From an uncultured Spirochaetota bacterium (GTDB lineage Bacteria > Spirochaetota > Spirochaetia > SZUA-6 > Fen-1364): a stretch of 64,000 nucleotides of DNA. Shown here one piece after another: positions 1 through 64,000 of this stretch (positions within the stretch are counted from its first letter, which is position 1; each line of letters begins with the position of its first letter). The position numbers were made by a program. The DNA lies in the NCBI GenBank assembly GCA_963820525.1, contig CAWGAA010000002.1:224001-288000 (forward strand), written 5' to 3'.

Positions 1-3000
1 GATGAAAGAGCTCCTCTCTAAGGATATCTCCCTGAATCCCCGGCATGCAGACGCGTATTTCGTTTTTGGCCAGCTCTACCGCGAGCTGCCGGGATGGCCG
101 CTGTCCTTCGGGAACATGGACTACGCCGTCTCCCTGGGACGTATGGCGGTGGATCTGAACGCCGAGCAGGTTCAGGATGGCACGGAAAAGGAGATCATCT
201 ACAGTTTTGAAACCGAGCTCGCCAAAACGCTGTATAAGAGGAACTGGTCTTCGGCGGCCCGCCTGAGCGAGCAGAAGAACAAGCTGGCGCGTTTTACGGC
301 GACAAAGGATCTGTTGGAAAAGGGCTGGGCTTACGAGGGAACGGTCCAGCTGCCAAACGTCTCGGACCGCGAGGAGGCCAAGACCCTCGTGAAGGCAGCC
401 ATCGCCGGACTGGAAGACAAGGCAAACCGCACCGTCTCGGACGACAAGGACCTGGCAACAGCCCGGGATGTCCTGAAGGGCTGGTAAGGCCGGCTTCAAG
501 CCCCCGTCAGCTCCGCGGGGGCCGCCCGCCGCGCTCGCTCTCTCCCTCGGACGCGTTTTTATCGGTCCGGGAGCCCTCCCGTCCTTTCGCAGGAGACTCG
601 CCTTTGTCAGCGTGACGCCGCTCATCTTGCGTCGGATCTTGAAGACCGCCTCTTCAACCCTCTTTTTCCTGGAGAAATCCTCGGCGAAAAGCTCCAATTG
701 GTCCTGGGACTCCAGGGCAACGAGGTTCGACATCCCCACCCCCACCAGCCGGATCGGCGTGCTGCCGTTCCAGCGGGCGTGAAGCAGCTCCCTGGCCACA
801 TCGTGGAGCTCCTCGGCGGAGGAGACCCAGTGTTTGAGGGACTTCTGCGCGCTCGTCGTGGTGAAGTCGTGATACCGCAGCTTGAGCGCGACCGTCTTGG
901 ACTTCCAGCCCTCCTCCATCATGCGGAAGACGATCTGGTGGCAGAGCTCGAGCAGCATCCGTTCGATTCCCGTCACGTCCTTCCTGTCCGTCTCGAAGGT
1001 GATCTCGCTGGAGAGCGACCTGCTCTTCGGCTCTTGGGAGAAGATCCCGGGTCCTCTCCCCGCACCACGCCGTGGAGGAATGATGCCGTCCCCTTTCCCA
1101 GGAGGCGGGCCAGCTCCTCACTGCCGAACTCGCGAAGCTGCGCAGTCGAGACGATGTTCAGCTCGGTCAGGCGGGCAAGCGTCTTCTCCCCGATGCCCCA
1201 GAGGTCCTTGAGCGCCAGCCGGTCGAGGAAAGCCTCAACCTCGGCCTGGGTCACCAGCGTCAACCCGTCGGGCTTGCCCGCGTTGGTGGCGAGCTTGGCC
1301 ACGTACTTGTTCGGCCCGATGCCGACCGTTATGGCGAGGCCGGTCTCGCGTTTCACCTCTTCCTTCAGCCCGCGGCCCACCTCAATGGCCGGGCCCAGAA
1401 GTCGCTCTGTCCCCGTCATGTCGAGGAAGGCCTCGTCAACCGAGATCTGCTGCATGTGAGGAGTGTACGTGCCCAGAATACCCATGACCTTCCGCGAGAC
1501 TTCCAGGTACCTCTCCATGCGGACGGGAAGGAACACCCCCTGGGGGCAGCGGCGGTAGGCCTGGGAGATGGCCATGGCGGAGTGGATGCCGAATCTCCGC
1601 GCCTCGTACGAGCAGGCGGACACCACGCCGCGCCTTCCCGGTGCGGCCCCGACGATGACGGGCTTTCCCTTGAGGCGGGGATCGTCGCGCTGCTCCACCG
1701 AAGCGTAGAAGGCGTCGAGGTCCACGTGGAATACGACCGGCGGCGGGCTCACGTCTTCAGCTCCAGGCTTTTCACGTAGTGCAGGTGAGTCTCCGCCTTT
1801 GCGGAGACGGGAAGCACGTCCACTCCGATGAGGGGCGCGTCGAAATCCATGGTGAGGGTGAGGGTGAAGGTCATTCCCGACGGAAGGGTGAGCTGGATGG
1901 GGAGGGGATCGGGGGGAAAGGCGCCGATGAGCAGCCGGTAATCGTGAGCGCTCTCCCGGATGAAGGGGAAGGAGCAATCCAGCAGGATGAACTCGTCGGG
2001 GGAGGAAAGCTTCGCGCTGAGGCTCCGCGGGTTGGCGCCCGAGGAAACGTCGAGGAGCAGGTTTTTCTTGTGGAGGAACTCGCTCTCACGCACCGCCACG
2101 GAGATGGGCACGTCGCGCGGTGGAAGGGCAAGGACACGCCGTGACTGGCGCACCTCCAGCCGCTCTTCGCCGTTTGCGTCCCGCACGACAACTTCCCCGA
2201 TCGGCGCCGGGCTGTCCATCTCCACGGCGTTGGTCTGGGAAGCCTCGTCGATGGTCTGCGTGACGCTGACGGGCTGAGGATGATCCGCCGTGAAGGGAGA
2301 AAAGAGAACGAGAGTCACGATGAGAGCGAGGGAGGCGGCGGAGAAGACTCCGGCGAACAGCGGCGAGCGCGTCCCCCGGCGCAGGATGCCCGGACCGCGG
2401 AAGAGGAGCCCCAAGCGGATGATGAACAGGACAAAGGGCAGGATCAGGCCAGCGATGAGCAGGTTGCCCCTGATCGGGGAGAGGAGGATGAAATGGCAGA
2501 ACGGGAGGGCGGGCATGAGGAAGACCTCGATGAGACCGCGCACGCCCCAGAAAGACGCGGGGAGGAAGAGCAGGAGCTTGGCCCACCGGTTCCTGGTCAG
2601 GGTGGCGAGGAGCACGAAGACGAAGGCCCAGAGAAAATAGAAGCTGAAGGAGATGTTGATCGCGGCGACGACCAGGATATCGGCGAGGAGAAAGAAGATC
2701 GAAGCCGCGGAGTAGAAGCTTCCATTGCGGGAGAAGCGGACGCCGCGCAGGAGAGGGAAGAAGGCGCTGTAGAGCCCGAGGGGCAGGGCAAGCTTCAAAA
2801 GCAGGAAGGTCATGGGAACGTACGTCCAGAGCGAGGGAAAGAGCCTCAAGGCCAGGATCCCCTCCAGAGCGAAGGTGGCGATCAGCAGGAGGAGAAACGG
2901 GATGGCGTACACCGGCAGGATGCTCCAACCATTGCGCAGCAAGGTGCGGATGTACTTCCTCAGTCCCTTCCGCAAGACCAGGGAGTAGAGGAGAATCGCC

Positions 3001-63000: not shown

Positions 63001-64000
63001 GATGGCGGCCTTTTCGTTCTGCCATTGGAGCTTCATGGCGTCGCGCCTGCCCGAAAGCTCCGCCAGCTCCTTCTCCAGCGCGGCCAGCCGCTCCCGGGAA
63101 GCCTTGTCGGACTCCTTGGAGAGGGCTTGCTTCTCGATGGTGAGCTGCATGATTCTGCGTTCGATCTTGTCCAGATCGGTCGGCTGGCTTTCGATTTCCA
63201 TCTTCAATCTGCTCGCCGCTTCGTCGATGAGGTCGATGGCCTTGTCGGGCAGGAAGCGGGAGGTGATGTAGCGGTCGGAGAGCACGGCCGCGGCGATGAT
63301 GGCGTCATCGCGGATGCGCACTCCATGGTGGACTTCGTAGCGCTCCTTCAGGCCGCGGAGGATCGCGATTGTGTCCTCGACGGAAGGCTGCGAGGTGAAG
63401 ATGGGCTGGAAGCGCCGCTCCAGGGCGGCGTCCTTCTCGATGTGCTTCCTGTATTCGTCAAGGGTCGTGGCGCCGATGGCACGAAGCTCTCCGCGCGCCA
63501 GGGCGGGCTTCAGGAGATTCGATGCATCGATCGCGCCTTCTGCCGCTCCCGCCCCGACCAGGGTGTGAAGCTCGTCGATGAAGAGGATGATCTTGCCTCC
63601 GCTTTCGGTTATTTCCTTGATAACGGCCTTGAGCCTCTCCTCGAACTCGCCGCGAAACTTCGTTCCGGCCACCAGGCCGCCGAGGTCCAAGGCCAGGAGC
63701 CGCTTGTCCTTTAGGGAATCGGGAACGTCCCCCGAGACGATCCGTCGAGCGAGGCCCTCCACGATGGCCGTTTTTCCCACGCCGGGCTCCCCGATCAGAA
63801 CGGGGTTGTTCTTCGTCCTTCGGGAGAGGACCTGCATCACCCGGCGGATCTCCTCGTCGCGGCCGATCACCGGATCCAGCTTCTCCTTTCGCGCGAGCTC
63901 CGTGAGGTCCCGGCAGTAGCGCTCGAGCGCCTGGTACTTCGCCTCGGGGTTCTGGTCCGTCACCCGCTGGGTTCCGCGAATGGAGCGGAGGGCCTCCATC

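Follow-up and report, generated by a model that had tools for sequence, protein, structure and literature searches.

Bacillithiol synthesis genes in two families of uncultured spirochaetes, and a split glutathione operon in one of their genomes

Background

The closest described counterparts of the genes analyzed here are the bacillithiol (BSH) system of Bacillus subtilis and the N-methyl-bacillithiol pathway of Chlorobaculum tepidum, which consists of BshA-C and NmbA. In Thermus and Polaribacter, predictions of thiol content from bshA-C proved correct (PMC6282198). According to a 2018 review (PMC5790435), the BshC reaction had not then been reconstituted in vitro and its chemistry was unresolved, so that product assignment rests on genetics in other phyla. 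Production of two thiols has also been predicted: in the portion of Data Set S1 of PMC6282198 used here, Myxococcus xanthus stands under both the BSH and the glutathione (GSH) pathways, the second listing following the GSH heading.

For spirochaetes, two surveys list no bacillithiol pathway. A passage of PMC6282198, a 2018 study of finished IMG genomes, states that Spirochaetes have no documented or predicted low-molecular-weight thiol, and in the supplement of a 2025 RefSeq survey (PMC12719100) the Spirochaetota gave no complete bacillithiol pathway. The former sentence, quoted in the genome-wide survey's note that preceded this analysis, does stand in the paper but is outdated, because measurements of glutathione and its enzymes exist for Leptospira interrogans (PMC10294975, section 4.2), and CoA is described in a passage of PMC4511686 as the redox thiol of Borrelia. 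The note was right that the literature searched holds no earlier report of spirochaete bacillithiol: the word does not occur in the Leptospira review, and the excerpts considered of PMC13102585, PMC8261052, and PMC2922099 draw no link between bacillithiol and spirochaetes.

We set out from the genome of an uncultured Spirochaetota bacterium of the order SZUA-6, family Fen-1364 (G000; 96.7% complete, 2.3% contamination), and compared it with its own family (f1, 25 genomes), a second BshC-positive family (f2, 24 genomes), and the order as a whole (92 genomes), G000 being counted in its family and order. Scores given as pairs are bits over the model cut-off for NCBIfam, TIGRFAM, and Pfam profiles. 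The distribution counts come from related genomes, and relatives are not independent data points.

Results

Bacillithiol synthesis genes lie on both sides of the window

The window is the 64,000-nucleotide stretch C2:224001-288000 (positions 1..64000). An ORF list and a Pfam scan of 42 window ORFs place none of the thiol-pathway genes inside it; its content (transporters, regulators, a DinB polymerase, and most of clpB at 61801-64000 on the minus strand) is unrelated to the pathway. The cysE-bshA pair ends 4.6 kb before the window, and bshB1 starts 2.35 kb past position 64000. The window had been credited with holding part of the finding; it does sit between both bsh loci, but every thiol gene named lies outside it.

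The gene for the GlcNAc-malate synthase BshA (C2:217209-218465, minus strand, 5.5-6.8 kb before the window) scores 499.1/273.7 on TIGR03999 and matches PDB 3MBO (E 3.6e-106), with the next-best family at 144 bits and the MshA model at 79/462. The true start probably lies downstream of the first ATG, the model match starting at residue 48. Ahead of bshA, between it and the window on the same minus strand, is cysE (TIGR01172 167/211; NF041874 166/150), which adjoins bshA in 22/22 f1 loci (21/21 other f1 loci fetched, plus G000). On the far side of the window are the genes for the GlcNAc-malate deacetylase BshB1 (C2:290351-291073, minus strand; TIGR04001 253.7/182.5; PDB 6P2T, E 6e-36) and the cysteine-adding enzyme BshC (C2:291070-292698, minus strand; TIGR03998 435.7/265.8; PF10079 and PF24850; PDB 4WBD, E 1.4e-63, residues 34-539). 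The bshC stop and the bshB1 start overlap by 4 bases, and the two genes adjoin in 25/25 f1 loci. The HPDD and HPDH motifs of BshB1, which we take to be zinc ligands, align with 6P2T and 1UAN. Across 28 full-length BshCs (that of G000 included), 32 residues are conserved to 90% or more, and the G000 BshC has them all (32/32); it is at most 38% identical to non-spirochaete relatives among the matches listed. All three enzymes align nearly full-length to solved structures, and the frames of bshA, bshC-bshB1, yfiT, and the BrxC-like gene discussed below are intact. The genes and scores given earlier thus reproduce (rounded: BshA 499/274, BshB1 254/183, BshC 436/266, YfiT ~232/160, GshAB half 447/425). 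Two other BshB-like genes, C1:2969935-2970687 (160/183) and C1:3103982-3104683 (105/183), were not counted, since similar sub-cut-off matches occur in BshC-negative families.

Could these genes be contamination, or mis-binned Acidobacteriota or Bacillota DNA? All 19 spirochaete-labelled records listed come from metagenome-assembled genomes and none from a cultured member, which leaves room for such an origin. Yet both bsh loci lie on one 718-kb contig amid spirochaete core genes (P83/100, polA, coaE), the same bsh neighbours recur across f1, the f1 BshCs form one clade with support 100, and contamination of G000 is 2.3%. A Borrelia P83/100-family gene, a spirochaete marker (C2:292801-294492, plus strand; PF05262 271/33.6), is divergent from bshC and anchors it in this chromosome; it also adjoins bshC in 6/24 other f1 bshC loci (1.5-kb flanks). 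Codon use of the bsh genes is typical of the genome (GC3 0.81-0.84 against a median of 0.81). The conserved synteny refutes a contaminant origin, to which we give practically no credence.

The pathway is found in two families of the order

Within the 92-genome order, BshC exceeds its cut-off in exactly two families, f1 (25/25) and f2 (24/24), and two further genomes carry a shorter, sub-cut-off BshC. The near-universality in f1 that had been reported therefore holds, with 24/24 other genomes over the cut-off instead of 23/24, and the count for the order rises from 46/91 to 48/91 other genomes plus the two short forms. The pathway had been ascribed to one spirochaete family; f1 is confirmed, but f2 has it too. 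Of the 49 genomes in f1 and f2 together, 43 have BshA, BshB1, and BshC all over cut-off; the remaining six are drafts in which a match is missing, partial, or broken. BshC was also said to be almost absent from other Spirochaetia. This is borne out by 1/362 sampled genomes outside the order, but the protein is also present in other Spirochaetota classes, full-length in some genomes and, in lineages with an nmbA-short bshC-bshB1-bshA operon, lacking the first 78 residues.

The absence of FlaA and P83/100 in 3/3 f2 genomes raised the suspicion that f2 is not spirochaetal, which RpoB identity ruled out: f2 RpoB is 77-78% identical to that of G000, as close as other order members (77-79%; another order 71%, other classes 58-65%), and f2 is therefore a spirochaete family. 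On whether the pathway arose once, the BshA and BshC trees are at odds. The BshAs of f1 and f2 form one clade with support 100 in a quick tree of 29 rows, whereas one clade of their BshCs is rejected (AU p 0.007; 38 of 103 rows, LG+G4, uneven composition). The 103-row BshC tree includes 18/25 f1 and 8/24 f2 genomes, with three partial rows (one spirochaete fragment and two outgroups) left out, and an 11-row RpoB tree does not resolve the relation of f1 to f2. As the BshC outgroups were chosen by likeness to the G000 protein, no donor is named.

BSH-using proteins accompany the pathway, and f1 has no Bdr

G000 encodes a YfiT/BstA bacillithiol transferase (C1:1984821-1985441, plus strand; NF009807 231.2/160; PDB 1RXQ, E 4.5e-54) and a BrxC (YtxJ)-like monothiol bacilliredoxin (C3:323687-324022, plus strand; Pfam PF11009 70.6/24.2; TIGR04019 69.1/77.25, below cut-off). 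The motif of the latter is TCPLS, against the TCPIS-type motif of BrxC, and the proline after the active cysteine is changed in 4/8 relatives inspected. Within the order, both proteins are confined to the two families with full-length BshC: BrxC occurs in 49/92 genomes (f1 25/25, f2 24/24) and YfiT in 45/92 (f1 23/25, f2 22/24), with 0/43 elsewhere in each case. In both g20 genomes, bsh genes are present but YfiT and BrxC are not.

Recycling looks different. The disulfide reductase Bdr (YpdA) is absent from G000 (best score 81/340), and occurs in 0/25 f1 genomes vs 21/24 f2 genomes, in the order thus in f2 only; a PF06491 search of G000 for BrxA/BrxB (YphP/YqiW) gave no match. The pathway had been called complete. 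Synthesis is indeed complete and conserved, but recycling is not, and the lack of Bdr leaves the recycling of oxidized bacillithiol in f1 unexplained. Two candidates for Bdr were rejected: one is TrxB itself (360/343), a genuine thioredoxin reductase, and the other, a 345-residue TrxB-like protein, is the one that reaches only 81/340 on the YpdA model. A CoADR-rhodanese-like flavoprotein (426/579), found in 22/25 f1 genomes and also in 2/5 BshC-negative genomes, is a weak candidate route for BSH recycling in f1. It was dismissed as an operon partner of yfiT, because a distance of 3-5.5 kb in five genomes among the matches listed indicates shared housekeeping synteny. Elsewhere, Bdr mutants still hold a reduced BSH pool (PMC8113031).

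The missing dedicated disulfide reductase, together with a divergent BshC of unproven chemistry, would also suit a related sugar-acid-amino-acid conjugate, built on an acceptor other than malate or with an amino acid other than cysteine. We consider such a product very unlikely: with 499 bits, the G000 BshA is about level with complete BshAs of Bacillota, Acidobacteriota, and Gemmatimonadota (four proteins, 499-525 bits), cysE is linked to bshA, and YfiT and BrxC keep to the BshC-positive families.

The bacillithiol of f1 is probably not methylated

A methyltransferase of G000 (C1:500240-500989) matches Chlorobaculum NmbA (9RI2) with an E-value of 6e-38 over residues 5-247, inside the E-value and coverage limits for orthologs in PMC12719100, and within the same taxonomic order NmbA-like genes lie directly ahead of bshC in 13/13 genomes of genus g6 and 2/2 of g20. 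The product could on these grounds be N-methyl-bacillithiol. Against this, the G000 gene is not near the bsh genes, and its protein lacks the N-terminal aromatic/arginine pattern common to NmbA and the operon-linked proteins. On a profile of the latter it reaches 146 bits vs 286-362 for operon-linked proteins (a partly circular comparison, as four of these went into the profile), close to proteins of 12 BshC-negative genomes (112-144 bits), and only 1/24 other f1 genomes has a match to that profile. Methylation in G000 is accordingly highly improbable.

Within the order, a split gsh operon is private to G000

G000 also carries, as had been stated, gshA plus a stand-alone GshF-type ATP-grasp half. 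The operon, all on the plus strand, is headed by an ArsR-family regulator (C1:3032356-3032664; PF01022 31.8/22), followed by the glutamate-cysteine ligase gene gshA (C1:3032689-3034122; PF04262 284/27; E. coli GshA 1V4G, E 3.9e-47; TIGR01434 224/393, below cut-off) and a gene, preceded by a ribosome-binding site of its own, for a stand-alone 331-residue glutathione synthetase of the GshF ATP-grasp type (C1:3034097-3035092; NF002688 446.7/425), and is closed by an ABC ATPase, an ABC-2 permease, and a second cysE (C1:3035100-3037468; Pfam; cysE TIGR01172 207.5/210.65). A promoter scan of the operon gave one site, at chance level.

The gshA and ATP-grasp frames overlap by 26 bases, and among 80 metagenome loci the fused form is frequent (38, with 23 split and 19 without a detected gshA), features that could point to a fused gshF interrupted by an assembly frameshift, the indel suspected earlier. 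GshF-type synthetases take residues other than glycine, and neither a glutathione reductase (the class-I flavoproteins nearest to one are two dihydrolipoyl dehydrogenases) nor a GST (only a glutaredoxin-like match to GST_N_3) was found in G000, so the pair might instead stop at gamma-glutamylcysteine or make another tripeptide. We judge this whole alternative unlikely. Ligase and ATP-grasp occupy two polypeptides with a separate start, the same split recurs in the four metagenome loci nearest to that of G000 (65-71% identity) and in many further assemblies, and the best 120 relatives of the ATP-grasp half are mostly ~331-residue proteins, including Geothrix, Holophaga, and Clostridia entries. 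As to the product, the best solved-structure match of this half is GshF (3LN7, E 1.3e-83, vs 3e-43 for cyanophycin synthetase). The indel suspicion thus falls: the split is a widespread natural two-gene form. It is said that Kino and colleagues described such a form of GshF in Clostridium acetobutylicum in 2007; the excerpts considered of PMC3462692, PMC4360819, PMC8182430, and PMC2940859 contain no description of it.

ArsR genes precede gshA-gshB in 9/23 split loci. Among 401 Spirochaetia, gsh occurs in 17 (6 split, 9 fused, 2 unresolved), and the split pair in only 1/92 order genomes, that of G000; it is no lineage trait. The proposal that G000 may make two thiols agrees with the presence of both gene sets, but it is not without precedent, given the prediction for M. 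xanthus.

Discussion

We consider it highly probable that G000 makes unmethylated BSH via BshA, BshB1, and BshC, that BSH is the thiol buffer of f1 following an old lateral gain, and that G000 acquired its gsh operon separately. BshA would join UDP-GlcNAc to L-malate, BshB1 would take off the acetyl group, and BshC would then add cysteine to yield unmethylated bacillithiol; judging by gene order, cysE, upstream of bshA, would tie the supply of cysteine to the BshA step. Neighbouring genes are presumably co-transcribed. BSH would serve f1 as redox buffer and conjugation thiol, with YfiT conjugating it and the BrxC-like monothiol protein stripping it from proteins. Oxidized BSH would be recycled without Bdr, the likeliest routes being the thioredoxin system and exchange with CoA or cysteine thiols. 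The pathway presumably entered the order laterally, long ago, and was retained in two families, while G000 would have independently gained the ArsR-gshA-gshB-ABC-cysE operon in its natural two-gene GshF form. Glutathione is the probable product of this operon, which would be regulated by ArsR and serve as a module induced by stress or metals and not as the main buffer.

A more far-reaching reading, tentative and in our view rather doubtful, is that the Spirochaetota hold several separately acquired BSH systems: a Bdr-independent one in f1, where BSH use would involve neither Bdr nor BrxA/B and recycling would thus follow an undescribed route; one with Bdr in f2, including one N-methyl-BSH genus; and the short-BshC operon lineages. 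G000 itself would then have two thiols, constitutive BSH and an ArsR-induced, possibly exported glutathione.

What is described here is a known pathway in a new phylum, a range extension that is new in the literature searched. No bacterial thiol is considered more widespread than bacillithiol, so that its extension to a further phylum was to be expected, and curated models already name these bsh genes. Nevertheless, the BSH pathway and BSH-using enzymes of some fifty uncultured species, all from one order, fill a gap left by two surveys and make bacillithiol a named thiol to look for in enrichments of f1 and f2 members. With no Bdr, f1 offers a natural case for how oxidized bacillithiol is reduced Bdr-independently, and the short form of BshC, like the divergent full-length ones, provides variants of an enzyme whose chemistry was unsettled in the 2018 review.

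Compared with the B. subtilis system (BshB1/B2, BrxA/B/C, Bdr/YpdA), G000 shares the three synthesis enzymes, each over its equivalog cut-off, as well as YfiT and a BrxC-like protein, but lacks Bdr and BrxA/B. Its gene order, cysE-bshA and bshC-bshB1, is also different: PMC5790435 describes an operon in which bshB1 and bshA stand with mgsA, and a pairing of bshC with panE. It shares BshA-C with C. tepidum. In g6, g20, and 7/9 short-BshC genomes of other classes, an NmbA-like gene adjoins bshC; G000 and f1, in contrast, probably have no true NmbA. Within the phylum, the thiols known from Leptospira interrogans (glutathione) and Borrelia burgdorferi (coenzyme A) are different ones, and Leptospira, too, combines glutathione synthesis with the lack of an annotated glutathione reductase. 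The GshF/GshAB bifunctional enzyme (PDB 3LN6, 3LN7) likewise combines a GshA-type ligase with a following GshF-type ATP-grasp unit, which in G000 form two polypeptides encoded in an ArsR-headed operon with an ABC-2 exporter and cysE. Finally, G000 resembles M. xanthus, a predicted BSH and GSH producer in the portion of Data Set S1 cited above, in having the genes of both pathways, but differs in having glutathione genes of the GshF type that are split and, within the order, occur in this genome alone.

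Results

Bacillithiol genes and their genomic setting

The studied genome, G000 (5.05 Mb in 4 contigs, 96.7% complete, 2.3% contaminated), encodes BshA, BshB1 and BshC, for which we recovered the NCBIfam scores reported in the genome-wide survey's note (bit score/cut-off 499/274, 254/183 and 436/266, respectively). Nearly full-length alignments were obtained with the solved structures 3MBO for BshA (E 3.6e-106), 6P2T for BshB1 (E 6e-36) and 4WBD for BshC (E 1.4e-63), and of the 32 residues with at least 90% conservation across 28 full-length BshCs (that of G000 included), the G000 BshC keeps all 32. 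The genes flank the window (C2:224001-288000), which contains transporters, regulators, DinB polymerase, ClpB and similar genes, and none of the bsh, yfiT, BrxC-like or gsh genes. bshA (C2:217209-218465, minus strand), with the upstream serine O-acetyltransferase gene cysE, ends 4.6 kb ahead of the window, and bshC-bshB1 (C2:290351-292698, minus strand), which overlap by 4 bases, begin 2.35 kb beyond it. yfiT and the gsh pair are on contig C1, and the BrxC-like gene is on C3.

The order cysE-bshA recurs in 22/22 loci, and bshC-bshB1 in 25/25, of G000's own family, f1. A Borrelia P83/100-family gene is divergent from bshC, polA and coaE lie near bshA, and bsh codon use is typical of the genome (GC3 0.81-0.84, median 0.81). 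Because of this conserved order, these neighbors and this codon use, the bsh genes are old residents of the genome, and contamination is a very unlikely source.

From the genes, their frames, order and distribution, we infer the enzymatic steps using the BshA-BshB-BshC scheme outlined in PMC5790435. BshA would form GlcNAc-malate, which BshB1 would deacetylate and to which BshC would add cysteine, giving bacillithiol (BSH); cysE would share a transcript with bshA and feed cysteine synthesis. YfiT would conjugate electrophiles, and the BrxC-like protein would strip BSH from proteins.

Several window features were recorded in their own right. An ORF at window 20921-21985 (minus) combines collagen-like repeats with an Hcp (type VI secretion tube) domain, and no further type VI genes were recognized among the scanned window ORFs. 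Amid sugar-transport genes lies a divergent twin arrangement (26005-27816 and 27830-29146, minus; 29146-31044 and 31041-32855, plus), in which an ABC ATPase domain is fused to a histidine kinase adjoining two sigma-54 response regulators, the domain scan covering the first three ORFs, up to 31044. Adjacent phosphopantetheinyl transferase, acyl carrier protein and AMP-binding ligase genes occupy 37071-39776, with no synthase recognized, and 16231-16593 (minus) encodes an ArsC/Spx-like glutaredoxin-fold protein with a single cysteine.

Distribution of the pathway

Counting G000, BshC exceeds its cut-off in 49 of the 92 genomes of the order (f1 25/25; a second family, f2, 24/24); genus g20 adds two genomes with a shorter, sub-cut-off form, and 41 lack any match. 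BshA is over cut-off in 49/92 (f1 22, f2 24, g20 2, and one lone contig of family f5) and BshB1 in 48/92 (24, 22 and 2 in f1, f2 and g20); of the 49 f1/f2 genomes, 43 have all three over cut-off. The bacillithiol-using enzymes track f1 and f2 only within the order: BrxC is found in 49/92 genomes (25/25 and 24/24) and YfiT in 45/92 (23/25 and 22/24), each with 0/43 elsewhere. Since these genomes are relatives, the counts stand for two or three events, not fifty. Locus L168 (G033:C179), which may be mis-binned, holds bshA by itself on a contig of 3.5 kb (50% GC) from a family that has no BshC; this bshA groups with the g20 type.

The survey had described BshC as near-universal in the family, which holds, and as scarce in other Spirochaetia, which holds outside the order (1/362 genomes, sampled evenly over the class) but not for f2. 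In a phylum sample of 400 genomes, BshC is over cut-off in seven from other classes, the pathway genes seen there being bshC and, adjoining it in 3/7, bshA; nine more have a 408-476-aa BshC below cut-off, and six matches are noise.

Family f2, in which bshC adjoins bshA in the order bshC-bshA, belongs in the order by RpoB, although neither FlaA nor P83/100 was found in the three genomes tested; it may be a spirochaete family that lacks periplasmic flagella. Its genomes (e.g. G001, G016, G022) are about 2-8 Mb, with bsh loci mostly of 68-72% GC.

Recycling and methylation

The bacillithiol disulfide reductase Bdr (YpdA) occurs in 21/24 f2 genomes (19 over cut-off) and in 0/25 of f1. Its absence from f1 is no argument against BSH, because Bdr mutants still hold BSH in the reduced state, as stated in part of PMC8113031. 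G000 has TrxB (360/343), a candidate for reducing oxidized BSH (BSSB), and no BrxA/B, and its BrxC-like protein carries TCPLS where B. subtilis BrxC has TCPIS. A CoADR-rhodanese-like flavoprotein, a weak candidate for BSSB reduction, is present in 22/25 f1 genomes, yet also in 2/5 BshC-negative ones; in G000 (C3:978787-980777; L397:8787-10777) the small gene behind it resembles a rhodanese on visual inspection. Elsewhere in G000 (C1:1182755-1184440, L036), a response-regulator receiver domain is fused to a thioredoxin-reductase-like domain.

An nmbA-like methyltransferase gene lies directly upstream of bshC in 13/13 genomes of genus g6 (followed by bshC-bshA, e.g. L163:5688-9461 in G016) and in 2/2 of g20, where the operon reads nmbA-like, short bshC, bshB1, bshA (L160:5106-8914, G077; L161:4311-8105, G076). 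The operon-linked protein matches 9RI2 (E 4e-41), described as the NmbA structure in a passage of PMC12719100. N-methyl-BSH is therefore predicted in g6 and g20. G000 also has a methyltransferase resembling NmbA (E 6e-38), which lacks the N-terminal pattern of the operon-linked proteins, scores 146 bits against the profile (operon-linked, 286-362; proteins of 12 BshC-negative genomes, 112-144) and has a counterpart in 1/24 other f1 genomes; G000 most likely makes plain, unmethylated BSH. The short BshC, found also in nine genomes of other classes (L178-L186, 408-476 aa), lacks residues matching G000 1-78, 122-127, 257-280 and 310-319 and keeps 20/32 conserved residues.

A probable glutathione operon with a gshA/gshB split

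The gsh locus comprises an ArsR regulator, gshA (477 aa), an ATP-grasp gene (331 aa), an ABC ATPase, an ABC-2 permease and a second cysE, so that each thiol locus has its own cysE; it looks like an inducible stress module. The survey had named an assembly indel as a possible source of the gshA/gshB split, which the data do not bear out: the ATP-grasp gene comes with a ribosome-binding site of its own and shares 26 bases with gshA, and the four closest of 80 metagenome loci are all split. Among these 80, 38 are fused, 23 split (one with a 620-aa second frame that resembles a broken fusion) and 19 without detected gshA; the split loci have ArsR upstream in 9, and cysE and an ABC ATPase downstream in 3 and 2. 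The best 120 of 1,459 relatives, in a search spanning 182-580 aa and hence outside the range of fused forms, are mostly about 331 aa, named ones including Geothrix, Holophaga and Clostridia. By these sequences the split is natural.

The GshF-type ATP-grasp domain occurs in 17 of 401 sampled Spirochaetia (fused in 9, split in 6 with G000 among them, unresolved in 2), with no overlap between the other 16 and the genomes of the class sample that have BshC, and within the order in G000 only (1/92); the operon is a gain by the G000 lineage alone. Codon use is atypical in gshA (GC3 0.69, under the 5th percentile) and not in its partner. The ATP-grasp half is nearest GshF (E 1e-83, versus 3e-43 for cyanophycin synthetase), GshA aligns to E. 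coli GshA (E 4e-47) and scores below its family cut-off, and neither glutathione reductase nor GST was found in G000; the pair probably makes glutathione.

Stand-alone GshF-type genes with no GshA-type neighbor detected in 1-5 kb flanks (L329, L340, L345, L347, L348, L355) possibly use another ligase partner. A quinol-type nitric oxide reductase (C1:3026098-3028368; L003:1098-3368) with NorB cytochrome-c-like and COX1 domains is encoded 4 kb ahead of the gsh operon, and a search starting from it gave no other heme-copper oxidase.

Discussion

The f1 and f2 BshAs form one clade (support 100), and the f1 BshCs a single clade (support 100, tree of 103 rows). A joint f1 and f2 BshC clade is rejected (AU p 0.007), in a test with uneven composition and outgroups picked by likeness to G000 BshC. 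The simplest reading of these trees is an old lateral gain of bsh within the order, with bshC later replaced or diverging fast. The g20 short BshC clusters with the short BshCs of other classes, and its placement points to a separate gain of that operon. The closest non-spirochaete BshCs among the matches listed (at most 38% identity) are mostly from Acidobacteriota and Bacillota, and no donor is nameable from the trees and these matches.

No paper on spirochaete bacillithiol turned up in the open literature, in line with the survey, subscription papers and bioRxiv supplements lying outside the search. A passage of PMC6282198 gives Spirochaetes as without documented or predicted thiol, none of the spirochaete names sought occurs in the portions of its supplements covered, and a passage of PMC12719100 places Spirochaetota with the phyla whose RefSeq genomes gave no complete pathway to BSH or N-Me-BSH. 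The survey's premise that no spirochaete thiol is documented is outdated: glutathione and its enzymes have been measured in Leptospira interrogans (PMC10294975, section 4.2), and the Borrelia redox thiol is CoA, as cited in part of PMC4511686. The extension of BSH to Spirochaetota is new within the literature searched, and the co-occurrence behind it is unusually clean. The pathway itself is known and the phylum is new for it, as predicted from the genes of uncultured bacteria; the additions that lend themselves best to testing are family f1, which has no Bdr, and the short-BshC operon. Two-thiol gene sets are not new, because Myxococcus xanthus stands both in the BSH list and in a later list after the GSH heading in Data Set S1 of PMC6282198.
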